A stretch of DNA of 32,061 bases from Chiloscyllium plagiosum. Its lineage: Eukaryota. The stretch covers positions 10,225,326 to 10,257,386 of the forward strand of contig NC_057753.1 of the NCBI RefSeq assembly GCF_004010195.1, written 5' to 3'. Shown in pieces: positions 5,587 through 28,766 of the stretch (the first letter of the stretch is position 1; every line of letters begins with the position of its first letter). The notes under the pieces were generated by a model. That model ran no database searches. It had not been told where the DNA came from and was given only the letters and a program-made list of their open reading frames with translations. The translations under genes and the position numbers were made by a program.

Positions 5587-5880
5587 GCTCACCCGCGGGT
5601 CCACAACAGGGAGCGGCCAATCACCTGCTCTCAGTGTGGGAAGGGCATTACCCGCTCCTCCCACCTGTGGAGGCCATTGCAGGGTGATTGAAGGAACGAC
5701 AGCTGAGTGCCATTATCGACTGGACTATCAACCCAGTTCTGGGGACTCCTCGGGACTCCTGGGTTCGAATCACACTGTGGCAGACGGCAGAATTGGAATT
5801 CAGTCAGAAATCTGGAGTTCAGAATCGAATGATAAAACTATTTTCTGGGGAAGAAATACCCCATCAGATTCACTCATGTT
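5587..5880 (+). pseudogene. 3' fragment of a C2H2 zinc-finger gene (last finger, stop at 5689-5691, 3' UTR)
   Basis: [34 protein letters not shown]. The 3' UTR is clearly paralogous to 19005-19200 on the minus strand. Confidence 0.82.
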
Positions 5881-7579: not shown

Positions 7580-8155
7580 NNNNNNNNNNNNNNNNNNNNN
7601 NNNNNNNNNNNNNNNNNNNNNNNNNNNNNNNNNNNNNNNNNNNNNNNNNNNNNNNNNNNNNNNNNNNNNNNNNNNNNNNNNNNNNNNNNNNNNNNNNNNN
7701 NNNNNNNNNNNNNNNNNNNNNNNNNNNNNNNNNNNNNNNNNNNNNNNNNNNNNNNNNNNNNNNNNNNNNNNNNNNNNNNNNNNNNNNNNNNNNNNNNNNN
7801 NNNNNNNNNNNNNNNNNNNNNNNNNNNNNNNNNNNNNNNNNNNNNNNNNNNNNNNNNNNNNNNNNNNNNNNNNNNNNNNNNNNNNNNNNNNNNNNNNNNN
7901 NNNNNNNNNNNNNNNNNNNNNNNNNNNNNNNNNNNNNNNNNNNNNNNNNNNNNNNNNNNNNNNNNNNNNNNNNNNNNNNNNNNNNNNNNNNNNNNNNNNN
8001 NNNNNNNNNNNNNNNNNNNNNNNNNNNNNNNNNNNNNNNNNNNNNNNNNNNNNNNNNNNNNNNNNNNNNNNNNNNNNNNNNNNNNNNNNNNNNNNNNNNN
8101 NNNNNNNNNNNNNNNNNNNNNNNNNNNNNNNNNNNNNNNNNNNNNNNNNNNNNNN
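7580..8155. other. Assembly gap
   Basis: Run of N. Confidence 1.
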
Positions 8156-8652
8156 CGAGCCGACTTGAGGGCAGAACGTGGGTGGAGAAAGAGAATAGAT
8201 GGGGAACAGGGATGGAGAGCAGAGGATGTGGGGAGAGAGAAAATGCATGGGGAGGCAGAGGATGGGAAGAGGGACTGGACAGTGTGTAGAGGATGGGTGA
8301 CAGAGAGAGAGGATGGAGGGCCGTGGGTGGTGGGGGAATGGGCAGGGAGTGCGGTTGGAGGCGGGTGTTAAGGCCAGGGACCACTGTGGTGGTGTGGGAA
8401 TGGACAGGGGTGCTGTGGGGATGTGTGTGTCTTGGAGGGAGGGGCTGATGGTGAAAGCAGCCCAGCCACTCCCAGCATCCCCTTCTCTACACACGCTCAG
8501 TGCAGATTTTTGAGTCTGGGTGGGATGCTGTTCGGAGGATCAGTATGGACTCGATGGGCCGAATGGCCTGCTCCCACACTGTAGGGATGCTATGCTTACT
8601 AGAGCTGTCAAACCAGCAACATCTAATTGGTGAAGTAAAAGACCAGGAGCCA
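8156..8652 (+). repeat. Left arm of a ~500 bp inverted repeat (partner 12650-13191)
   Basis: Reverse-complement match. 8156-8282 is identical to 13065-13191; the remainder is diverged. Includes an HE1/CR1 tail at ~8515-8590. Confidence 0.92.
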
Positions 8653-12649: not shown

Positions 12650-13191
12650 ATCCCGATCTTTTACTTCACCAATTAGGAGTTGCTGTTTGACAGCTCACAT
12701 AATTATAGAATCCCTACAGTGTGGGAGCAGGCCATTTGTCCCATCAAATCCACATTGACCCTCCAAACAGCATCCCTTCCAGACTCACAAAAATGTGCAC
12801 TGCATGTGTGCAGAGAAGGGGATGCTGGGAGTGAGTGGGATGCTTTCACCACCGCCCCCTCCCTCCAAGACCCAAACATCCCCACAGTGCCTCTGTCCAT
12901 TCCCCACGACCACAGTGGCCCCTGGCCTTAACACCCACCTCCCACCGTGTCCCCTGACTATTCCCCCCTGCCACCCACAGCGCTCCCTGTCCATTCCCCA
13001 TCCTTTCTCTCTTGCTCTCTCTCACTCTCTCGTTCTCTCTCTCTGACCCCCATCCTCTGCACCCCTGTCCAGTCCCTCTTCCCATCCTCTGCCTCCCCAT
13101 GCATTTTCTCTCTCCCCACATCCTCTGCTCTCCATCCCTGTTCCCCATCTATTCTCTTTCTCCACCCACGTTCTGCCCTCAAGTCGGCTCG
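12650..13191 (-). repeat. Right arm of the inverted repeat (partner 8156-8652)
   Basis: Reverse complement of 8156-8652, with an expanded CT tract. Confidence 0.92.
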
Positions 13192-13241
13192 NNNNNNNNN
13201 NNNNNNNNNNNNNNNNNNNNNNNNNNNNNNNNNNNNNNNNN
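13192..13241. other. Assembly gap
   Basis: Run of N. Confidence 1.
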
Positions 13242-13704: not shown

Positions 13705-14000
13705 GTCATAGATTTGTAGAGCACAGAAACAAACCCATCGGTCCATGCCAACTAGCTATCCTAAGTTAATCTAGTGACCCATTTGCCAGCATTTGGCCCA
13801 TATCGCTCTGAATCCTTCCTATTCATATCTCTATCCAGATGTATTTTAAATATTCTAATTGTACCAGCCTCCACCACTTCCTCTGACAGACCATTCTTTA
13901 CACATACCACCCTCTGTGCGAAACCATGGCCTCTTAGGACCCTCAGAAATCTTGTCCTTCTCACCCTAAACCTGTGCCCTTCAGTTCTGGACTCCACTAT
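13705..14000 (-). mobile_element. CR1 3' end
   Basis: ORF 13761..14012 reads ESRTEGHRFRVR...FAQRVV..NGLSEEVVEAG. Confidence 0.82.
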
Positions 14001-14029
14001 CGCCCCCCACATTCATCCGCCAATAGGGG

Positions 14030-14470
14030 AAAAGACACACGGGTTGAGCAGCCAGACAAAATGCAATAAAATGTCGAGCCACAGGGAAAAAAAAACTTGT
14101 GGCTCTACCCTTTTTTTTCCTCCTATTGGCATTTGGACACTAAATATCTGTCAGTAACACGACCATTCTATGTACGTTTGCAGGTGCCAGCAACGCAGTG
14201 CGCATGTCTGCCGGTGTCAGCAAAACACTGGGCATGCTCACCGCTACCCACACAAAAAAACGGAATGATACCTTCTTTTGACGAACCAATAGAGAGCCCT
14301 GGAGGACCGGAAGGAGATCGGTCCTCCTGCCAATCAGAGCCACCCCATTGACTGAATGCGGCGGTCTGACCAGGAGCTTCTGAAGCCGCGACTCCTGCAC
14401 CTCTCTCTCTGAATGAAGATTGTACTTCACCCAGACCGTAAATTCCTTCCTCTGTCTAAGATCTGTGAGT
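14030..14470 (+). promoter_or_regulatory. Putative Pol II promoter and non-coding first exon of the ZF cassette
   Basis: CCAAT at 14286 and 14330, ETS CCGGAAG at 14307, NRF1-like TGCGCATG, CpG enrichment, donor CT|GTGAGT at 14465. Paralogs at 24940-25312 (donor 25307) and 23105-23325 (partial). Confidence 0.55.
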
Positions 14471-14554
14471 ATGGCACTGTATTTTCTCGCCCCCCCCCAC
14501 TTTCCATTTCTTTTTCATTCTGGGGTTCAATTGTTGACTTGCAGAAACTGAGAG

Positions 14555-14720
14555 CTTAAAAATGTGTTGCTGGAAAAGCGCAGCAGGTCAGACAGCAGCA
14601 AGAAGGCTTATGCCCGAAACGTCGATTCTCCTGCTCCTTTGATGCTGCCTGACCTGCTGCGCTTTTTCAGCAACACAGTTTTAAGCTCTGATCTCCAGCA
14701 TCTGCAGTCCTCACTTTCTC
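14555..14720 (+). mobile_element. Palindromic mini Penelope-like insertion with a 17 bp TSD
   Basis: Inverted PLE termini. CTTGCAGAAACTGAGAG occurs at 14538-14554 and 14721-14737. The empty site is present in the paralog at ~25376-25393. Confidence 0.85.
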
Positions 14721-14804
14721 CTTGCAGAAACTGAGAGGAAAGGGAGTGAATCCGGGAGTGGACAGACTCTGGAAACATTGGTCCAGGTCTGTGTCGCAAT
14801 GGGC

Positions 14805-15325
14805 AAAATAGACAGGCAGGAGGCTGGAAGAACACTTCAAGCCAGGCAGCATCAGGAGGAGGAGAAGTCGACGTTTCGGTTTCTTCATGACGGGGGTGTG
14901 GGTTTGGGGAGAGATGCAGATAAAGGGTGTGTTGGGGGCAGGGTGGTGAAGTGGGATTAGGTGAAGACAGCTAGAGGGTACAACCTGGTTGTCAGTGGGA
15001 GGAATGAATCTGGTTGGTGGCAGGGAGGAGGGCGGGGCTGGGAATGGAGTCAGGGGAAGGGAGATTTTGTTTTGAAATTGGAGCACTCAATGTTGAGTCC
15101 TCCGGGCTGTAGGCTGTCCAGGTGGAAGATGAAGAACTTACAGTTTAGTTCATTGTGGCAATGGAGGAGACCTATGATGGTCATGTCAGAAAGGGAGTGA
15201 AAAGGGGAATTAAATTGGATGGTGACTGGGAGGTCTGTTTGGCCTCTGTGGACTCAGCTGCGATGCTCAGTGAACCGTTCCCTAAGTTTATGTTCTGTCT
15301 CCCTGATGTGGAGAAGACCACAATT
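14805..15325 (-). mobile_element. Penelope-like element 3' part with GIY-YIG endonuclease remnant
   Basis: CGLLHIRETEHKLRERFTEH...DLPVTIQFNSPFHSLSDMTIIGLLHC...LQPGGLNIECSNFK. Absent from the paralog at ~25450. Confidence 0.82.
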
Positions 15326-15439
15326 TGCAAGCAGGTGGCAAATGCAGTACCACAATGTGAAGTTATAGCTTTTGCTGTGAAAAAAAAGCAGGAGGTGTAT
15401 TGCTTAATTTTGTTTAATTGTTTGATATATTGGGATGTG

Positions 15440-15551
15440 GAGATGCTGGAGATCAGAGTCAAAAGTGTGGTACTGGAAAAGCACAGCATGTCAGGCAGCA
15501 TCCAAGGAGCAGGAGAGTTGATGTTTCGGGCACAAGTCTTTCATCAGGAAT
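15440..15551 (-). mobile_element. PLE terminal fragment with degenerate hammerhead
   Basis: Minus strand: ATTCCTGATGAAAGACTTGTGCCCGAAACATC. Positionally equivalent to 25530-25665. Confidence 0.7.
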
Positions 15552-15716
15552 GATGTGTGGATGTACAAAGAGGCCTCAACGTCCTTTGAAACCAGTCAAT
15601 ACCAGTTGTCAGACGGGTGCAGCAAGCAATCAGCAAGGCAAGTGGTACCTTAGCAAGGCAAGTGGTATCTTAGCAAGAGAAATTGAATTCAGAAGTGGGG
15701 ATGTCTTCCTGCAGTT

Positions 15717-16041
15717 ATTAGATTAGATTTTGAATTAGATTACTTACAGTGTGGAAACAGGCCCTTCGGGCCAACAAGTCCACACCGACCCGCCGAAGCG
15801 CAACTCACCTATACCCCTACATTTACCCCTTACCTAACACTACGGGCAATTTAGCATGGCCAATTCACCTGACCTGCACATCTTTGGACTGTGGGAGGAA
15901 ACCGGAGCACCCGGAGGAAACCCACGCAGACACTGGGAGAACGTGCAAACTCCACACAGTCAGTCGCCTGAGTCGGGAATTGAACCCGGGTCTCTGGCGC
16001 TGTGAGGCAGCAGTGCTAACCACTGTGCCACCCTGCCGCCC
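15717..16041 (-). mobile_element. HE1-type V-SINE, young, full length
   Basis: Nearly identical to 9775-10075. Absent at the paralogous site (~25808). Confidence 0.92.
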
Positions 16042-16154
16042 ACAATGGGGACATTGAATATATTCAAGGCTGACTTCATCTGATTTTTTAACAACAAAGA
16101 AGTGGATGTTTATGGGGAAAGGCAAGAAAATGGTTTTAAGATTGGTACAGAACA

Positions 16155-17870
16155 GTTATAGAGTCATACAGCACAGAAACAGACCCTTCAGTCCATCTAG
16201 TCCATGCTGAACTAGTCACAAACTAAACTAGTCCCACTTGCCAGTGTTTGGCCCATATCCCTCCGAACCGTTCCGATATATATACTTACCCAAATGTCTT
16301 TTAAATGTTGTTACTGTACCTGCATCCACCACTTCCTCTGGACCTTCATTCCACACACAAACCACTGTGTAAACAAAAAAAAGTACCCCTCATGCCTTTT
16401 TAAAATCTTTCTCCTCTCACCTTCAAATTTGCAGTCATCTCATCTATGCCACGCATGATTTTATAAACCTCTGTAAAATCACCTCTCAACAGATGCTCCA
16501 GTGAAAACTTCCCAGCCTATCCACCTCGACATTGGTAGATTCATGTTGAGTCATGATCTTTTGAATACTGGTGCAGGCTTGAAAGGCCAGTATTCAAAAG
16601 ATCTGACTCTTGCTCCCAAATCACTCAGTCTGTGTCCAGGACAGAAAGAGACCAAAAGACATAGGAGCAGAAGTTAGGCCATTCAGCCTATCGGGTCTGC
16701 TCTGCCATTCAATCATGGCTAATAGGTTTCTCAACCCCATTCTCCAACTGTCCCCGTCACCCTCAATCTCCTTGATACCCTAGAACCTATCTATCTCAGT
16801 CTTAAATATGCTCAGTGACCTGTCCTCCTCAGCCTTCTGTGGCAGTGAATTCTATATATTCACCACTCTCTGGCTGAAGAAGTTTCTCCTTATCTCTGTT
16901 CTGAAAGGTCTTCCCTTTACTTTAAGGCTGTGCCTACTGGTTCTCGTCTCTCCAACTAATGGAAACATCTTCCCAATATTCACTCTGTCCAGGCTGGTCA
17001 GGATTCTTTATGTTTCAATTAGAACCCCCTGAGTGTGGCCCTGTTAATCAGCATGAACCAGACCCTTCAGGATTAGGTTCAGCAAAGTGAGAATGGAGGA
17101 AGAGTGTGTGGGACAGAGATGTTCAGCTTCAAAGGAATGAGAGAGGAAAGAGAGTTCACTATAAATTAGAATTGATCTGATGGGCCAAGGAGTGGCAGAT
17201 GGTGTTTAATTTAGAGAAGTGTGTGGTTTGCAGTTTGGTCAAGCAATCCAGGCAGGACTGACACAGTTAAGGGGAGTGTTGCAGAACAAAGAGCCCTTGG
17301 AGTGCAGGTTCATAGTTCCTTGAATGTGGAGTCTCAGGTAGACAGAGCAGTGAAGAAGGCTTTTAGTATGCTTTCCTTTATTGGCCAGAGTATTGAGTAT
17401 AGGAGTTGGGAGGTCATCTAGTTGCGACTGTACAGGACATTGGTTAGGCCACATTTGGAAGACTGCGTTCACTTCTGGTCTCTCTGTTACAGCAAAGATA
17501 TAGTGAAACTTTGACTGGGATTGGAAAAGATTAATAAGGCTGTTGCCAGAGTTGGAGGGCTTGAGCTATAGGAAGAGGCTGAATAGGCTGGGGATATTTT
17601 CCCTGGAGCAACGGAGGCTGAGGGGTGACCTTATAGACGTTCATAAGGGGCATGGATAGGGTGAATACCCAAGGTCTTTACCCCAAGGTCGGGGAGTCCA
17701 AAACTAGAAGGCATAAGTTTGAGGTGAGAGGGGAATTTTAAAGGCATCTGGATGGGTACATGAATGTGGACCACATGCAGGCAAATTGGACTAGATTAAT
17801 TTAGGATATTTGTTTGGCACAGACGAGTTGGATTGAAGGGTCTGTTTCCGTGTTGCGTGACTTTAATTGC
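16155..17870. mobile_element. Cluster of CR1 fragments in both orientations
   Basis: CR1 3' ends on the minus strand (16155-16525, 16655-17030) and an RT C-terminus on the plus strand (17175-17870: EQRALGVQVHSSL...LYRTLVRPHLE). Confidence 0.78.
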
Positions 17871-19180
17871 TGGCTGTGAAAGCAAAAGGGTCGTTGTGAA
17901 GACTGGACTTTCAGAGCTGCTTTCAAGGATGTTTTGCCCTGACTGGGAGTAGAAAAGTTTGACTGAAGTGTGTCGGTGTTAATGCCTTGATGTCTCATTT
18001 TGTTCCCACCATTCTGGGGATGCTAACCATTTAATGTCTGGTTGTTCATCATGAAGCTGAATTGCAGGTTCACCCTGAATTGACAAACTTTTTTTTTCTC
18101 GCTTTCCAAAATCAGACCTGCTCACGCTCAGCAGGAGCCGAATGTTGTGAAAGATATTAACTTTCAGGTGGAGTTACCCAAAATTCAGAGAGGTGTCAGT
18201 CTTAACTTTTTTGCTTTTCTGCTCCTGTAAGATCCTGAATCAGCACCTTCAGGAGAATTAGTTAGAGCGGAGGAAGAACAGAACGAGAGAGAGAGAGTGG
18301 AATGGTGCTTTCAATTTTGTGGAATAACAAAAGAAACAAATATTTTGCAGATAGTAGAATTGCTTGTTCTGAATTTCTACCCTATACTGTTAGTGATGAT
18401 TTTTGTAATCTCTTTTTGCAGAGTATCTGAAGACACAAGTTTCAAAATCAACAGATGAAGGCTTTATGCCCAAAATGTCGATTTTCCTGCTCCTCAGATG
18501 CTGCCTGACCTGCTCTGCTTTGCCAGCACCACTCTAATCTCCAGCATCTGCAGTTCTCACTTTCACCTGTAAGAAATGGGCAGTTTTAAAACAAAAACCT
18601 GTTGCAGTTCAAAGCTCTCAATGAGAGTCTGTGCTCGGCGGGAAGTTCAGGTAATCTTTATTGCGACCCAACTTTGTTACAGCTTCAGAAGCTCCCAGCA
18701 GAAAGGTGGAGAAAAAGTAGCAATTTTTAAAAAACAGCTCGAGGTCAAAGTGCACACAGCCCCTCCAACCCCTCGCTTTCTTCATTATTGGTCACCACCG
18801 AGTTGTCCTTTGTAATTGGATCCTTGGTACAGCCTTAACAGCCTCACTCAGCGATTTCAACCTGTATCCAAGTAAGGTGCATGGGCAGTATAGGGTCAAC
18901 CACACTGCTGTGGGTCTGGAGTTACGTGTAGGCCAGACCCTGGGATGGCTGAGTGAATTCTCTCCTACAACGACAGTTTCCTTCCCTGAAACGAACTGAG
19001 TGAATCAGATGGGGGTTTTCTTCCACCCCCACCCCACCGAAAATAGTTTCATCGTTAGATTCTGAACACCAGATTTCGGACCAAATCCAATTCCACCATC
19101 AGTCGTGGTGGGAATGGACCCCGGGATCCCCGGAACTGGGTTGATAGTCCAGTCGATAATGGCATTCGGTTGTCGTTCCT

Positions 19181-19479
19181 TCAATCCCCCTGCAATGGCA
19201 CATGAACACGCTGGTGGCTCCGCAGGTAGGTGGAGCAGGTGAAGGCCTTCCCGCACTCAGGGCAGCTGAAGGGCCTTTTTCCCCCGTGTGGACCCGCCGG
19301 TGAGTCGGCAGGTTGGAGGAATTGCTGAAGCCCTTCCCGCAGACAGGGCAAAGGAATGGCCTCTCCCCGGTGTGACTGCGCCGATGAGTCTCCAGCGCAG
19401 ACGGGAAACTGAAGCCTTTCCCGCAGTTGCCACACTTCCATGGTTTCCCTACTGTGCAGGATTCCTCTGGATTCTCCAT
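19181..19479 (-). pseudogene. Short C2H2 zinc-finger gene (3 fingers) with one frameshift at 19276-19285
   Basis: Kozak [73 protein letters not shown][fs][31 protein letters not shown]. Candidate acceptor TTTTTACAG| at 19859; candidate AATAAA at 18657-18662. Confidence 0.9.
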
Positions 19480-19989
19480 GGCCGAAGCTTCAGCCACACA
19501 CAAACACATGTGGAGCCTCTCCCCACCATGTAATCCTCTTTCCAGGCTCCACACTCAGTGCACTGCAACGGTAGAGTTTCTCATCCAGTCCCACTGATGC
19601 CGAAAATGTACTGAAAAGGAATCAAAAAGCTTTGCTCCTTTTCACAGAATCATAGTTGAAAACCGATGGATTGAGTGACTGTCAGCCATTGACGTCAAAG
19701 TGAGGACTGCAGGCGCTGGAGAGTCAGAGTCGAAAAGTAGAGCGCTGGAAAAGCACAGCAGGTCAGGCAGCATCCGAGGAGCAGAAGAAACGACATTTTA
19801 GGCATAAGCCCTTCATCTGTTGATTTTTGAAACTCCTGTCTTCAGATCTTCAAATACTCTGTAAAAAGAGATTATAAACTTGAAAGGGTTAGAAAAGATT
19901 TACAAGGATGTTGCCAGGGTTGGAGGATTTGAGCTATAAGAAGAGGCTGAATAGGCTGGAGCAACAGAAGCTGAGGGGTGACCTTAGGA

Positions 19990-20382
19990 GATGAGCCAAG
20001 TGCTGACAAATGGGACTAGATTAATTTAGGATATCTGGTTTGCATGGACGGGTTGGACTGAAGGGTCTGTTTCCATGCTGTACATCTGTGACTAAATAAT
20101 AAAAAGTATACTTTGAGAAATAACAAACTATATCCATGTTAACAAAGCTTAGTACACCACATGCTTTACTAACTATTCTCAGCAGGTCCTGTCCCTTCAG
20201 TGACTGAGGAACATATACATGCTGGTGCATAGTCTCCTTCACTAGCGTTTACATACTAGCCTCAGCAATTGCACAAGTAACAGCGAGAGTATAAAAAAAC
20301 AAGGATTTTTTAAGAGAGAAGGTAAAAAGCAAAAGCAGATGGAAAGTCGGTGTAAAATGTCACTATGACAGGACAGGCCCCA
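19990..20382 (-). repeat. Inverted copy of the sequence following the QSOX-like exon (22505-22920)
   Basis: ORFs 20021..20242(-) and 22664..22873(+) are near-identical, and the nucleotide match extends over the unique region. Confidence 0.88.
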
Positions 20383-20587
20383 GAACGCCCCTGGTGCTCA
20401 CCTTCCACCCTACCAACCTTCGCATAAACCAAATCATCCACCGACATTTCCGCCACCTCCAAAAAGACCCCACCACCAGGGATATATTTTCTTCCCCACC
20501 CCTTTCCGCCTTCCGCAAAGACCGTTCCCTCCGTGACTACCTGGTCAGGTCCACGCCCCCCTACAACCCACCCTCCCATCCTGGCAC

Positions 20588-21003
20588 NNNNNNNNNNNNN
20601 NNNNNNNNNNNNNNNNNNNNNNNNNNNNNNNNNNNNNNNNNNNNNNNNNNNNNNNNNNNNNNNNNNNNNNNNNNNNNNNNNNNNNNNNNNNNNNNNNNNN
20701 NNNNNNNNNNNNNNNNNNNNNNNNNNNNNNNNNNNNNNNNNNNNNNNNNNNNNNNNNNNNNNNNNNNNNNNNNNNNNNNNNNNNNNNNNNNNNNNNNNNN
20801 NNNNNNNNNNNNNNNNNNNNNNNNNNNNNNNNNNNNNNNNNNNNNNNNNNNNNNNNNNNNNNNNNNNNNNNNNNNNNNNNNNNNNNNNNNNNNNNNNNNN
20901 NNNNNNNNNNNNNNNNNNNNNNNNNNNNNNNNNNNNNNNNNNNNNNNNNNNNNNNNNNNNNNNNNNNNNNNNNNNNNNNNNNNNNNNNNNNNNNNNNNNN
21001 NNN
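20588..21003. other. Assembly gap
   Basis: Run of N. Confidence 1.
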
Positions 21004-21060: not shown

Positions 21061-21159
21061 TTCGCTGCTCCTTGGATGCTGCCTGAACTGCTGTGCTCTT
21101 CCAGCACCACTAATCCAGAATCTGGTTTCCAGCATCTGCAGTCATTGTTTTTACTTCTA

Positions 21160-22135
21160 ATTTAGGATATCTGTTCAGCTTGGACAAGTTGGGCCAAAGG
21201 GTCTGTTTGTGTGCTGTATGACTCTAGTCATCTTCGGTGGAAGCAGAAGTGTGGTTGTGAAGACTGGACTTTCAGAGCAGCTTTCAAGAATGCTTTGCCC
21301 TTACTGGGCATAGAAGTGTTTGACTGAAATGTGTCGGTGTTAATACCTTGATGTCTCATTTTGCTCCCCTCTTACTGGGGACGTTAACCATTTCATGTCT
21401 GGTTGTTTCTCAAGAAGCTGCATTGCAGGTTCATCTTGAATTGCATGCTGTTTTTGCTTCCTAAAATCAGACCTGCTCACTCTCAGCAGGATCCCAGTGT
21501 TGTGAAAGATATTAACTTTCAGGTGGAGTTATCCAAAATTCAGACAGATGTCGGTCTTGATGTGTTTGCTTTTCTGCTCCTGTAAGACTCTGAATCAGCA
21601 CTTTCAGGAGAATGAGAGTGGAATGAAAACAGAGGAGGAGAGAGAGTGGGATGGTGCTTTCAATTTTGTGGAATAACAAAAGGAAAGAATGTTCTGTAGA
21701 AAGTAGAATTGCTTGTTCCGAATTTCCACGCTGAACTGTCAGTGATGACTTTTGTAATCTCTTTTTGCAGCATATTTGAAGATCTGAAGAGATGAAGGCC
21801 TTATGCCCAAAACATTGACTCTCCTGCTCCTCGGATGCTGCCTGACCCGCTGTGCTTTTCCAGCGCCGCACGTTTTGACACTGACGCTCCAGCCTCTGCA
21901 GTCCTGATTTTGACGCCCATGTCTGACAGTCACTCAATCCATCGGGATCGCAACAACTTTTAACTATGATTCTGTGAGAAGGAGCAAAGCTTTTTGGTTC
22001 CTGTTTGAGTACATTTTCAGTATCAGTGGGACTGGATGAGAGAGCCTACTGTTGCAGCTCACTGAGTGTGGAGCCTGAAACAGCTTACGGCCTGGAAAGA
22101 GGAATTCACAGTAGGGCGTGATGGTGAGGCTCCAC
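21160..22135 (+). repeat. Partial copy of the ZF cassette (intron end, acceptor at 21770, terminal-exon leader) lacking the ZF CDS
   Basis: Matches 17800-18570 (+) and 19510-19875 (-). Homology ends at GAGGCTCCAC (22135), 30 nt before where the ZF ATG would be. Confidence 0.85.
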
Positions 22136-22220
22136 CTGCCAAGCCCTATCCCCGAGCTGATGTCACACGGGGGTGAAGTCGCTCGAGTGAGGAAGCGGCG
22201 GGAGGGCGGCTGTTAGGAAA

Positions 22221-22470
22221 ATGGCACCGTGAGGCCGGGCAGACACCCGTCACTGGGCACCGCCGCCTTCCTGGTGCAGCTGCTGTGTCACGGCCACACC
22301 GGCCGGCTGTACAGCAGGCAGGAGCCGGTGAGCATTCTGGAGGCGGATGGGGTTAAGGGCCTGCTTGGGGACTCGTCGGCCGCCTGGGTGGTGGAGTTCT
22401 ACTGATCGTGGGGCGGCCCCTGTGTCAACTATGGGGCCACCTGGAAGGTACTGGGCCCGGGAGGTGAAAG
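22221..22470 (+). pseudogene. QSOX2: Unprocessed pseudo-exon 1 of a quiescin sulfhydryl oxidase (QSOX2-like)
   Basis: LGTAAFLVQLLCHGHTGRLYSRQEPVSILEADGVKGLLGDSSAAWVVEFY*SWGGPCVNYGATWKVL..EVK matches the QSOX signal peptide and Trx1 start (recalled QSOX2: RLY...[28 protein letters not shown]). It ends in a phase-1 donor AAG|GTGAGG at 22471. Stops at 22230 and 22403, frameshifts, CGHC changed to GGPC. Confidence 0.85.
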
Positions 22471-22811
22471 GTGAGGCAGGTTGTGGGACGGAGGGGAAGG
22501 AATGTGTGGCCTGTCTTGTCAAAGTGTTATTTTACACAGACTTTCCATCTGCTTTTACTGGGGTTTGTGCTTTTCACCCTCACTCTGTTTTCAAAAAAAA
22601 TCATTGTGTTTTTTTACTCTTGCTGTTATTTGTGCAACTACTTAGACTAGTGTGTAAATACCAGTGAAGGAGATTATACACCAGCATGTATGTGTTCCTT
22701 GGTCACTGAAGGGCCAGGATCTGCTGAGAATGGTTAGCAAACCATGTGGTGTACTAATTATTGTTAACATGGATATAGTTTGTTATTTGTCAAAGTATAC
22801 TTTTTACTATT

Positions 22812-23100
22812 TAGAGTCACAGATGTACAGCATGGAAACAGACCCTTGGGTCCAATCCGTCTATGCCAACTAGATATCCTAAATTAATCTGGTCCATTTG
22901 TCAGCACTTGGCTCATCTCCCTCTAAACCCTTCTATTCATATACCCATCCAGATGCCTTTTAAATGCTGTAATTGTACCACTTCCTCTGGCAGCTCATTC
23001 CAGACACTCACCCCACCTCACCACGGCCCTTGGGTACCATTTATATCTTTCTGCTCTCACCCTAAACCAATGCCCTCTAGTTCTGAACTTCACCCCTGTA
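22812..23100 (-). mobile_element. CR1 3' end
   Basis: Standard CR1 3' terminus. Confidence 0.78.
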
Positions 23101-23744
23101 CTGCAGAAAAGACAAAGTTGAGCAGCCAGACATAATGCAAAAGCAATAAAATGTCGAGCCACATGGCAAAAAAATATTGTGGCTCTACCCTTTTTTCACT
23201 CCTATTGGCATTTGGACACTTAAGATCTGTTAAAAACACCAGCAGCACCACAGAGCATATTGTGTCTGCTTCTCAGTGCGGACAAGCAGCGCACATGTTT
23301 GCTGATGTCATCAAAACACTGCGCTGTTGGCAGAAAAGGCGACATCGCTTATCTCTGTTCTAAAAGGTCTTCCCTTTACTCTTCAAGCTGTGCCCTCTGG
23401 TCCTAATCTCCCCTACCAATGGAAACTTCTTCCCACCGTCATTGCACTGTGGGGATGAAGTCCTACCCTAACCAGACATTTCTGATGGTGGGTGAGACTA
23501 GGCCTTAATGTTAGGGAATGTAGCTTTTGGACTGAGATGAGGAGGAACTGCTTTTCCCAGAGAGCAGTGAATCTATGGAATTCTCTGCCCAAGGAGGCAG
23601 TAGAGGCAGCTTCATTACGTATATTCAAGACACAGTCGGATGGGTTTTTGCCTGGTAGGGGAATTAAGGGATTACTTGTGACAAGGCAGGGGGGAGGAGC
23701 TGAGACGATGGATAGATCAGCCATGATCTTATTGAATGATGGAG

Positions 23745-24910: not shown

Positions 24911-25629
24911 AAGGAGAATAGCGAGGAGCATGCACGGTTATGTTGAGCCACAGCAGGGGTGAAACAAAATTGTGGCTCTACCCTTTTTTTTTTTCTCCTA
25001 TTGGCATTTGGATGGTTGAATCTGTCAGAAACACCAGCATTTCTACAGAGCCTACTGTCACCAAGCACTGCGAATGTTCGCTGGTGTCAGCAAAAAACCA
25101 TGCATGCTTTTATCTATCCGTAAAAATAGTGCATGAATTTCTTTTGATGTACCAATGAGGATCACTGGAGGACCGGAAGGAGACCCCACTATTGTCTGAA
25201 TGTGGAAGTTGGACCATATGCTTCTGAAGCTGCTGCTGCTCTTGTCTGTCTGAATGAAGCTTAAGATTCACCCAAGACTGTAACTTCCTTTTTCTGTCCA
25301 ACATCTGTGAGTACAGCACCCTCTTTTCTCACTCCTTTTTCTATTTTTTTTTCCATGCTGGGATTCAATTGTTGACTTGCAGCAACTGAAAGGAAAGAGA
25401 ATGAATCCAGAAAGGGGCAGACTCTAGAAAAGCTGGTGCAGGTCTATGTCTCAAACACATGGCAAATGGGGTATCAGTGTGAAGCTATAGCCTTTGCTGT
25501 GAAAAGAAAAGCAGAGAGGAGGTGTACTGCAAAGTGGAGAAAGTGAGGACTGAAAATGCTGGAGATCAGAGTCGAAAAGTGTGGTGCTGGAAAAGCACTG
25601 CAGGTCAGGCAGCATCTGAGGAGCAGGAG

Positions 25630-25665
25630 AGTTGACGTTTCGGGCACGAGCCCTTCATCAGGAAT
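25630..25665 (-). ncRNA. Minimal hammerhead core in a PLE terminus
   Basis: ATTC-CTGATGA-A-GGGC TCGT GCCC-GAAA-C-GTC|AA: core intact, stem I weakened. Confidence 0.5.
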
Positions 25666-27207
25666 GATGTGTGAATGTACAAAGGGACCTCAGCATCCTC
25701 CTACACCAGTCACTGCCAGTTGTCAGACAGGTGCAGCAAGCAATCAGCAAGGCAAGTGGTATATTAGCAAGAGGAATTGAGTTCAGAAGTGGGGATGTCT
25801 TCCTGCAGGTGAATATATTCAAGGCTGAGTTCATCTGATTTTTGAAGAACAGAGAAGTGGATGGTTATTGGGGAAGGCAAGAAAATAGTTTTAAGACCAT
25901 TATAGGCAAGTTAGTCATACAGCACAGAAACAGACCCTTTAGTCCAACTAGTCCATGCTGATTATATTCACAAACTAAACTAGTCCCACCTAGTTTGGCC
26001 CAAATCTCTACGAACCTTTCCTATTCAAGTACTTATCCAAACATCTTTTAAACATTGTTACTGTATCTGCATCTACCACTTCCCCTGGACATTCATTCCA
26101 CACACAAGCCACTCTGCGAAAAAGGTGCTCCTCGTGTCTTTAAAATCGTTCTACTCTCACTTTAAAAGTTTGCTGCTTCATCTAGAAATGACACCTGCCA
26201 TTCACCTCATCTATATCCCTCATAATTTTTTAACCCTCTCTAAGGTCACCTCTCAACCTCCAATGCTCCAGTTAAAAAAGTCCCAGCCTCTGCACCTAGA
26301 TGTAGGGAGATCCATATCCATTTGTGATCTGTTCAATGCTGGTGCAGGCTTGAAAGTCAAAATGGCTGACTCCTGCTCCCAATTCTCACTCTGTGTCCAG
26401 GACAACAAGAAACCATAAGACATAGGAGCAGAAAGTAGGCCATTCAGCCCAATAGGTCTGCTCTTACCATTCAATCGTGGCTGATAAATTTCTGAGCCCC
26501 ATTCTCTTGCTTTCTCCCCCTAACCCTCGATCCCCTTGATATTCAAGAAGCTAGCCATCACAGTCTTAAATATCCTCAGTGACCTGGCCTGCGTAGCCTT
26601 CTGTCCCAGTGAATTCCATAGATTCACCACCCTCCTTATCTCCATTCTAAAAGGTCTTCCCTTTATTCCAAAGCTGTGGGCCTGTTAATCAGCATGAACC
26701 AGACCCTTCAGGGTGATGTGCAGCAGGGATTAGGTTCAGCAAAGTGAGAATGGAGGGAGTGTGTGTGGGATGGATATTTTCACCTTCTAGGGGATAAGAG
26801 GAAAGAGAGTTCACTGTAAATTAGAATTGATTGGATGGGCTGATGGGCCAAGGAGTGGCAGATGGAGTTGAATTTGGCGAAATGTGAGATGTTGCATTTT
26901 GGTCAAGAAATGCAGGTAGGACTTACAAAGGGGGAATGTTGCCGAAGAAAGAGACCTTGGAGTGCAGGTTCATAGTTTCCTTGAAAGTGGAGTCGCAGGT
27001 AGACAGGATAGTGAAGATGATGCTTTCCTCTATTGGTCAGAGCACTGAGTGAAGGAGTTGGGAGGTCATGTTGCGGCTGCACAGGACCTTGGTTCGGCTA
27101 CTTTTGGAATATTGTATGTAATTCTGGTCTCCATCCTATGGAAGGATGCTGTGAAACTTGAAAGTGTTTGGAAAAGGTTTATAAGGCTGGTGCTAGAGTT
27201 GGCGGGT

Positions 27208-28129
27208 TTGAGCGAGAGGGAGAGGGTGAATAGGCTGGGGCTGTTTTCCCTGTAGTGTCAGAGGCTGAGGGGTGACATTATAGAAGTTTATAAGGGTCAT
27301 GCAGAGGGGAGAATAGCCTAGATGTTTTCCTCAGGTAGGGGATTCCAAAACTAGAGGGCAGAGGTTTGCGCTGAGGACAAAGATTTAAAAGGGACCTGAG
27401 GGGCCACTTTTTCACACAGAGTGCTGCACGAATGGAACGAGCTGACAGAGGAAGTGGTGGAGACTGGTACAATTACAAAATTTAAGTAACATCTGGCTGG
27501 ATACATGAATAGGAAGGGTTTTGAGGAATACGGGCCACATGCTGGCAAATGGGAATAGATTAATTTCGGATATATGGTTGGCACGGACAAGTTGGGCCAT
27601 AGGGTCTGTTTCCATGGTGTAGGACTCTAATTGTCTTCGGTGAAAGCAGAAATGTGGTTGTGAAGACTTGAGCGAGAGGGAGAGGCTGAATAGGCTGGGG
27701 CTGTTTTCCCTGTAGTGTCGGAGGCTGAGGGGTGACATTATAGAAGTTTATAAGGGTCATGCAGAGGGGAGAATAGCCTAGATCTTTTCCTCAGGTAGGG
27801 GATTCCAAAACTAGAGGGCAGAGGTTTGAGCTGAGGACAAAGATTTAAAAGGGACCTGAGGGGCCACTTTTTCACACAGAGTGCTGCACAAATGGAACGA
27901 GCTGACAGAGGAAGTGGTGGAGACTGGTACAATTACAAAATTTAAGTAGCATCTGGATGGATACATGAATAGGAAGGGTTTTGAGGAATACGGGCCACAT
28001 GCTGGCAAATGGGAATAGATTAATTTCGGACATGTGTGGTTGGCATGGACAAGTTGGGCCATAGGGTCTGTTTCCATGGTATAGGACTCTAATTGTCTTC
28101 GGTGAAAGCAGAATGTGGTTGTGAAGACT
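27208..28129 (+). repeat. Recent tandem duplication, 2 x ~460 bp
   Basis: 27208-27667 and 27668-28129 are near-identical (CR1 3' end plus unique flank). Confidence 0.95.
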
Positions 28130-28500
28130 GGACTTCTAGAGCAGCTTTCAAAGATGTTTTGCCCTTACTGGGACCGGAACAAGTTACAATGAAATCTTTC
28201 ATTATGAGACAGCAAGCAACAAAGTGAGTACATCCGGGATTTTGATGGAAAGTGGGAATTCGTTGCACTGTGGGGATGAAGCCCTACTCTATCCAGTCAT
28301 TTCTAGGCCTCAAGCTTAGGGGGAGTTGGTTTAGGACAGAGATGAGGAGAAGGAAGTGAGAACTGCTGCTTTTACCAGAGAGTAGTGTATCTGCAGAATT
28401 CTCTGCCCAAGGAAACAGGCTCCAGTATGCCCCGGTCCTAATTCTTCGGCTTGACGTACCTGTGAATGTAAACTTTGAAGTGTTTTGGTTAACTGATGCA

Positions 28501-28766
28501 AATATTTCCCATTTGTCCAATACTATAGTAGCAGCTGCTTCAGTCATTGAGATGGTTTTGATTCATCTACTAAATATACCTACTCTTATTAGACAATATT
28601 CATAACAATGTACGCGAGGTGATTCTATAAAAGAATATTTCCCATTTGTCCAATACTATAGTGGCAGCTGCTTCAGTCATTGGGATGGTTTTGATTCATC
28701 TACTAAATACACCTACTCTTATTAGACAATATTCATAACAATGTACGCGAGGTGATTCTATAAAAG
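28501..28766 (+). repeat. Tandem duplication, 2 x 133 bp
   Basis: 28501-28633 and 28634-28766 differ at about 3 positions. Confidence 0.95.

Follow-up and report, generated by a model that had tools for sequence, protein, structure and literature searches.

A multi-copy exon derived from QSOX2 in bamboo sharks, probably recruited as the non-coding first exon of a zinc-finger unit

The genome of the bamboo shark Chiloscyllium plagiosum harbors, beside broken pieces of zinc-finger exons, a short GC-rich segment resembling the first exon of a QSOX sulfhydryl oxidase gene. The question raised by this locus is how the 5' end of such a gene came to lie there, and whether it still has a role. The segment was analyzed within a window of 32,061 nucleotides (i.e., the whole stretch of DNA under study), whose features are reported in Table 1.

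Protein searches retrieved QSOX sequences as the best matches, and not another thioredoxin-family protein. The best PDB match of the exon is QSOX1 (E 6e-12), the next family being at 1e-5 and PDI-type matches much weaker; shark QSOX2 models match it at E 1e-20 to 1e-24. Over 49 positions, the exon is 78-80% identical to the QSOX2 of bamboo sharks and 46-47% identical to QSOX1 of bat and toad, the only QSOX1 comparators, neither of them from a shark. The preliminary description of this DNA, which had proposed a copy of QSOX2 rather than QSOX1 exon 1 ending at a splice donor, is thus confirmed, the QSOX homology being far above chance. The start that it had placed at 22136 has to be moved, since the homology with the family described below begins at about 22119; the exon end at 22470 and the donor at 22471 hold.

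The coding capacity of the exon is lost. The mature QSOX-like frame extends from 22238 to 22456, offset by one base from the ATG at 22221, and the terminal codons (EVK) are read in a third frame starting at 22458, which makes two frameshifts in total; the motif WCGHC has become WGGPC. Each of the lesions listed in the preliminary description (TGA at 22230, TGA at 22403, two frameshifts, and CGHC changed to GGPC) was found in the sequence, and the window copy has neither an intact CxxC thioredoxin site nor a continuous ORF to the Erv domain. It is the only copy of the QSOX2-derived exon in the window, where no further QSOX exon was seen. The donor and the intron behind it are retained and unspliced, no exon 2 is joined to it, and neither poly-A nor terminal repeats were seen around it; this is the structure of an unprocessed duplicate and agrees with the earlier proposal of a copy made at the DNA level, not a retrocopy. 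As a separate observation, the former start codon lies within AAAATGGC (22218-22226), which, with the letter of the reads at 22226, we take to be a YY1-type motif; motifs of this type often overlap the start codons of housekeeping genes. In the window copy, the motif has been lost through CpG decay.

Table 1. Features of the QSOX2-derived exon and of the zinc-finger units in the window (positions are those of the window).
Position	Strand	Feature	Basis
5588..5876	+	Leftover 3' part of another zinc-finger exon (72% to 19304-18997)	
18422..18566	+	Start of the same acceptor exon as at 19858, truncated, ending the 14071-17967 intron copy	
18997..19858	-	Zinc-finger exon, acceptor 19858; best junction match for P0024 and P0012	
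21158..21770	+	Intron ahead of the acceptor in an upstream zinc-finger unit (82% to 17797-18530)	
21771..22118	+	Zinc-finger exon reduced to its 5' stump, adjoining the QSOX2-derived exon without a gap	
22119..22470	+	Exon derived from QSOX2 exon 1, probable leader; 5'-truncated member of a bamboo-shark multi-copy family	Protein homology, family alignment, tree
22221..22232	+	Former QSOX2 start codon, shut after 3 codons by TGA 22230	
22403..22420	+	TGA 22403 (Trp in the family), then inactivated redox motif WGGPC common to the family	
22471..22476	+	Retained splice donor AAG/GTGAGG, exon end 22470; RNA depth falls past the donor	
22505..22920	+	First part of the intron; 417-nt match (84% identity) to 20382-19987, immediately before the minus-strand zinc-finger exon	
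24940..28193	+	Remaining unit intron; five collinear blocks shared with 14071-17967 (70-79%); ends at 28193 before any zinc-finger exon	
26401..26425	+	Cassette-exon acceptor matching the P0001 tail (paralogue 16640)	
26734..26889	+	Cassette exon matching the P0010 tail (paralogue 17077)	

The window exon has its closest protein matches not in QSOX2 itself but in short NCBI models labeled "sulfhydryl oxidase 1/2-like" (88-90%). These belong to a family of 23 model proteins from three bamboo-shark genomes, distributed over at least 12 loci, a count obtained by reading accessions, contigs, and sequence differences. The family comprises three distinct exon versions in C. plagiosum, on contigs of 15 and 73 Mb, at least five loci on four scaffolds in H. 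ocellatum, and at least four versions, on a 76 Mb contig, in C. punctatum; QSOX2 is located on other contigs (48, 67, and 62 Mb). Over the same 49 positions, the window exon shares 88-98% identity with nine of ten family representatives, and 73% with a frameshifted one. A Ser-to-Trp change, the WGGPC motif, and the terminal frameshift are common to the family. In a phylogenetic tree built on 62 columns, from which chicken QSOX2 and two frameshifted models were omitted, the window exon and eight models form one clade (100/99) inside the carpet-shark QSOX2 sequences (94/97), these bootstrap values being rough. The placement of the family beside C. plagiosum QSOX2 in the same tree was not used, the branches concerned being only 0.015. 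The family is therefore a single, multi-copy clade that originated from QSOX2 exon 1.

The family keeps a signal-peptide leucine that the QSOX2 proteins of all three bamboo sharks have lost; therefore, the capture should predate the split of the two genera. The families of carpet sharks diverged before the K-Pg boundary, according to PMC8529718; a date for the split between Chiloscyllium and Hemiscyllium was not found in the literature. No member from outside Hemiscylliidae occurs among the eight matches of 8000 scored candidates, or among the top matches in the 1.84 billion representatives mentioned below, these searches covering protein models, not DNA, and a metagenome scan for related DNA gave 0 confirmed loci among 599 pattern matches. 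A further observation concerns the two residues before the mature start, which are TA in the C. punctatum copies as in C. punctatum QSOX2, and TG in the C. plagiosum copies as in C. plagiosum QSOX2; this may be either a coincidence or the result of gene conversion with the parent gene.

The sequence downstream of the donor reveals to what the exon is attached. The counterpart of the intron start at 20382-19987 runs through a CR1 fragment into acceptor 19858 of the minus-strand zinc-finger exon, and the 14071-17967 intron copy runs on to the same zinc-finger acceptor, at 18422 (the names CR1 and, below, Penelope are our presumptive assignments from the translations of the repeats). Because the shared intron blocks lead to these two acceptors, the order of the unit can be read from the sequence as QSOX2-derived exon, a repeat-rich intron of about 6 kb, and a zinc-finger exon with a predicted ATG of its own. 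A match between 13705-14233 and 22816-23324 (69.5%) was not counted as unit homology, being mostly repeat. The zinc-finger exon type occurs three times in the window, where all the zinc-finger pieces are broken; in the minus-strand exon, the ORF 19479-19102, with its ATG at 19479, encodes two C2H2 fingers, and a third is out of frame. The zinc-finger setting given in the preliminary description is thus correct, but not the term "cluster": there is one frameshifted exon with three fingers, plus fragments. No intact zinc-finger ORF was seen downstream of the QSOX2-derived exon within the window.

The window copy is itself a decaying wreck of such a unit. A zinc-finger exon stump stands in place of the 5' part of its exon, so that the region corresponding to the upstream part of the family models is missing, and after the break of its intron at 28193 no zinc-finger exon follows within the window. 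The fusion point (22110-22135) adjoins a 10-nt word of both parents, also found at 19507-19522, with an offset of about 10 nt; the fusion may have been a microhomology-guided deletion. Other rearrangements are visible in the window. The segments 18997-20388 and 21158-22920 represent two zinc-finger units lying back to back on opposite strands, with a Penelope-like fragment and an N gap (20589-21003) between them, as the outcome of either a local inversion or an assembly join. Recent tandem duplications (98% identical; 27208-27507 with 27668-27967, and 28501-28633 with 28634-28766) are present where the unit intron breaks off. An inverted repeat of 177 nt (8106-8282 and 13065-13241), 100% identical and with each arm beside an N gap, is possibly an assembly artefact.

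Of the 23 family models, 22 part from one another exactly at the donor. Sixteen of these 22 tails were scored against the junction peptides of all 4426 AG sites in the window; the six others are three with only 1-2 residues and three nearly identical to the P0002 tail. For P0024 of C. punctatum, the best junction, with a score of 49 of 62 against 23 for the next, is formed at the zinc-finger acceptor 19858, and the same acceptor is the best, less clearly, for P0012 of C. plagiosum (35, next 30); these are 2 of the 16 scored tails. The tail of P0010, which its accession assigns to the P0012 locus as a further isoform, matches the plus-strand sites 26734/17077 (37/36 vs. 25), and that of P0001 the plus-strand sites 26401/16640 (35/31 vs. 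19); both matches sit inside the unit intron, in the correct orientation. The tails of P0011 and P0014 match 14256-14330/25140-25196 by tblastn only, those of P0002, P0018, and P0009 match minus-strand repeats, an antisense CR1-type tail was found in five models, and 7 of the 16 tails either are short or have no match. An acceptor at 21772 for the tails of P0013, P0025, and P0027 was discarded: the AG ends at 21770, and these short tails are non-diagnostic. No joint at donor 22470 is present among the 15 joints listed out of 623, nor among the 24 loose ends listed. Altogether, the splicing evidence consists of NCBI gene models, which suggest that splicing onto the zinc-finger acceptor may be real and common. 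Continued into the zinc-finger exon, the QSOX frame would meet a stop after no more than about 15 codons, roughly 330 nt ahead of the zinc-finger ATG; no in-frame QSOX-zinc-finger fusion protein was found among 7 matches of 47 candidates, which is weak evidence.

Members of the family are transcribed. Reads were recruited at 82% likeness from a raw RNA run (X21) and from two runs that are only guessed to be RNA (X17 and X10), whose organisms may differ from that of the window. The X21 depth over the exon is 23.2 and 22.3 on the expected sense strand and 4.8 and 2.0 on the other, decreasing past the donor to 3.2 and then 0.5. From exon to intron, the depth is 624, 326, 1.6, and 0 in X17, and 25221, 7244, 67, and 0.8 in X10, so that the fall just past the donor ranges from about 7- to over 100-fold. 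The X17 exon signal comes from one 133-nt contig with two differences and, therefore, derives from the family, not from QSOX2. The read analysis, carried out on a window copy that lacks the upstream part, reported no cluster of transcription starts.

A fourth run (X1), whose library type is not on record, has a depth of about 11-22 thousand, nearly equal over the zinc-finger intron and exon, which gives it a DNA-like look. Over the exon core, the depth is 28-39 thousand, and about 1,000 just past the donor; along the exon, it goes from about 2,900 at 22226 to 14,000 at 22275 and 34,000 at 22405, with about 1,000 at 22484. In an otherwise DNA-like run, this is an about 12-fold rise over 22256-22470 and an about 30-fold drop at the donor, a pattern that could reflect copies in the hundreds, processed copies, or enrichment of the library. 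A copy number derived from this depth (about 1000-fold that of one near-identical intron contig, 33.7) was rejected because the library type is not on record.

The preliminary description had also stressed the surviving CpGs, from which it suggested either a recent copy or an unmethylated housekeeping promoter that may be reused. The CpGs are there: the exon has a GC content of 0.66 and 23 CpG in 352 nt, with an o/e of 0.62 vs. a window mean of 0.31, and is the most CpG-rich of 2960 sliding 352-nt windows; a zinc-finger exon near 19101 is almost as rich (20 CpG, o/e 0.63). CpG islands are commonly defined by a GC content over 0.5 and an o/e over 0.6 along more than 200 nt. The exon barely clears these thresholds, yet it shows an excess of CpG decay, unlike an unmethylated island. 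In comparison with model P0012, 7 of 13 clean differences visible at the amino acid level are CpG-decay transitions (four edge or duplicate rows were dropped, and one of the seven has a non-CpG alternative). Likewise, four of the six best-supported differences listed between reads and window destroy CpGs in the latter (p about 0.006). In minus-mate reads, the family letter is found at 22211 (19/19), 22226 (20/20), 22232 (20/20), 22370 (15/15), 22405 (31/32), and 22275 (22/27), and the TGA at 22230 has C in 20/20; the reads may stem from a species other than that of the window, and the near absence of the window's own letters is no proof of silence. This pattern reads as a germline methylation signature, the opposite of what had been suggested for the window copy, and the family form should therefore be richer in CpG. 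The idea of a reused promoter suits the family, which is transcribed and whose models are spliced; it does not suit the window copy, with its CpG decay, its replaced 5' part, and reads carrying the family letters.

On the whole, it is probable that the 5' end of QSOX2 was recruited once as the first exon of a zinc-finger unit, was amplified together with it, and works as a non-coding leader. According to this scenario, a segment including the CpG-rich 5' region, coding exon 1, and the donor would have been copied as DNA in the ancestor of Hemiscylliidae, becoming the first exon of a C2H2 zinc-finger unit with cassette exons in the repeats of its intron. The QSOX reading frame would have been inactivated once, before the unit was amplified by segmental duplication. 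The family would then be spliced from the old donor, the exon acting as a promoter-bearing, essentially non-coding leader, and the leftover QSOX frame would represent at most an upstream ORF reaching only a few codons beyond the exon junction. The promoter of the family would presumably be the one inherited from QSOX2, and intact zinc-finger proteins might be produced from transcripts carrying the leader. A bolder version, in which QSOX2 promoter and first exon are the standard control cassette of a bamboo-shark zinc-finger subfamily, with hundreds of uniform copies and the QSOX frame as a translation-tuning upstream ORF, is put forward only as a doubtful extension.

Among the other explanations, the one that survives best, even though we regard it as rather unlikely, is that the exon is a transcribed passenger of duplicated blocks, giving rise to chimeric transcribed pseudogenes whose mostly non-productive RNAs are joined to any downstream acceptor. 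Most annotated isoforms do end in repeat-derived or short exons, including the five with the antisense CR1-type tail, and the zinc-finger pieces of the window are broken. Protein databases, on the other hand, show the leader exon only where no better ORF exists; therefore, leaders of intact zinc-finger genes would be invisible to protein searches. Moreover, the intron behind the donor belongs to the zinc-finger unit, and the exon core is about 98% alike (the two differences in 133 nt) vs. 84% for the neighboring intron copies, which argues against a mere passenger.

It is improbable that the exon core is a mobile or retroposed element, with hundreds of copies made apart from the zinc-finger units. 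The climb of the X1 depth across the exon and its fall at the donor are what 5'-truncated processed copies would give; yet the summed depth of contigs does not measure copy number, enrichment of RNA or chromatin would look alike in a library of unrecorded type, and the window copy has its donor and intron and is devoid of terminal repeats and poly-A. Even less credible is the reading implied by the NCBI annotation, i.e., a family of small proteins of 85-190 residues consisting of a signal peptide and half a thioredoxin domain, or of a longer frame from an upstream ATG. The 23 models have open frames, and the 25 residues that precede the donor hardly vary among the three species. However, the models were selected for being open, their C-termini are unrelated, both changes in the redox motif abolish its function, and a search of 1.84 billion representatives gave the upstream extension no relative outside its own family; the start codon and the signal-peptide frame vary among the copies, which speaks against a conserved protein. 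Finally, a recent, single duplication of QSOX2 exon 1 landing in a zinc-finger cluster, the first option of the preliminary description, agrees with the one copy in the window and its CpG o/e of 0.62 and can be practically discarded, given that the exon is closer to the family than to QSOX2 (88-98% vs. 78-80%), that models from two genera and three species carry the same lesions, and that the family retains the leucine missing from three bamboo-shark QSOX2 proteins.

The recruitment of a QSOX2-derived leader, if true, has several implications. The window copy is a pointer to the family, which is more interesting than the locus itself. A lineage other than primates would provide an example of promoter recruitment with subsequent family expansion, in which one duplication rewired many genes for zinc-finger transcription factors at once. 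In addition, over 20 bamboo-shark NCBI models named "sulfhydryl oxidase 1/2-like" would be leader exons, not enzymes; otherwise, they would mimic an expansion of QSOX. A different annotation issue concerns QSOX2 itself: in the NCBI models P0003, P0178, and P0185, from Chiloscyllium, Scyliorhinus, and Amblyraja, LIM-homeobox (Lhx3) domains are fused to the N-terminal half of QSOX2, and several complete QSOX2 proteins carry the name of an Lhx3 isoform, which may be due either to recurrent read-through or to an annotation merge in elasmobranchs.

The family is apparently undescribed: no account of it was found in the open-licence literature, whose supplements may list such families, and the main text of the whale shark genome paper makes no mention of QSOX. 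The comparison with known systems starts from vertebrate QSOX2 (shark orthologues P0003-P0007), with which the window exon shares the exon 1 sequence, the start motif, and the donor position, and from which it differs in having no further QSOX exon in the window and in its destroyed redox motif and frame. As in recruited first exons, a segment of an unrelated gene is found in several members of a duplicated family, at 12 or more loci in three genomes. Chimeric pseudogenes are likewise transcribed from the promoter and first exon of their 5' parent (putatively so in sharks) and spliced to an unrelated 3' partner (PMC13122177), but they are recent, hominoid, and few, whereas the shark family is amplified and present in two genera. 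The LRRC37 family gained BPTF- and DND1-derived promoters by segmental duplication, with a broadened expression (PMC3371713); the putative foreign promoter of the shark family would have been gained in the same way, with the difference that in LRRC37 RACE and reporter assays were applied to a few genes, while in sharks the evidence is the sequence of at least 12 loci, possibly far more. The NBPF family, with its EVI5-derived promoter (PMC3429928), appears to be a parallel case, since the promoter region of an unrelated gene was recruited by duplication and is carried by many members of an expanding family; NBPF consists of primate DUF1220 genes, whereas the shark units encode C2H2 zinc fingers, have captured a whole coding exon with its start codon and donor, and have a putative promoter.
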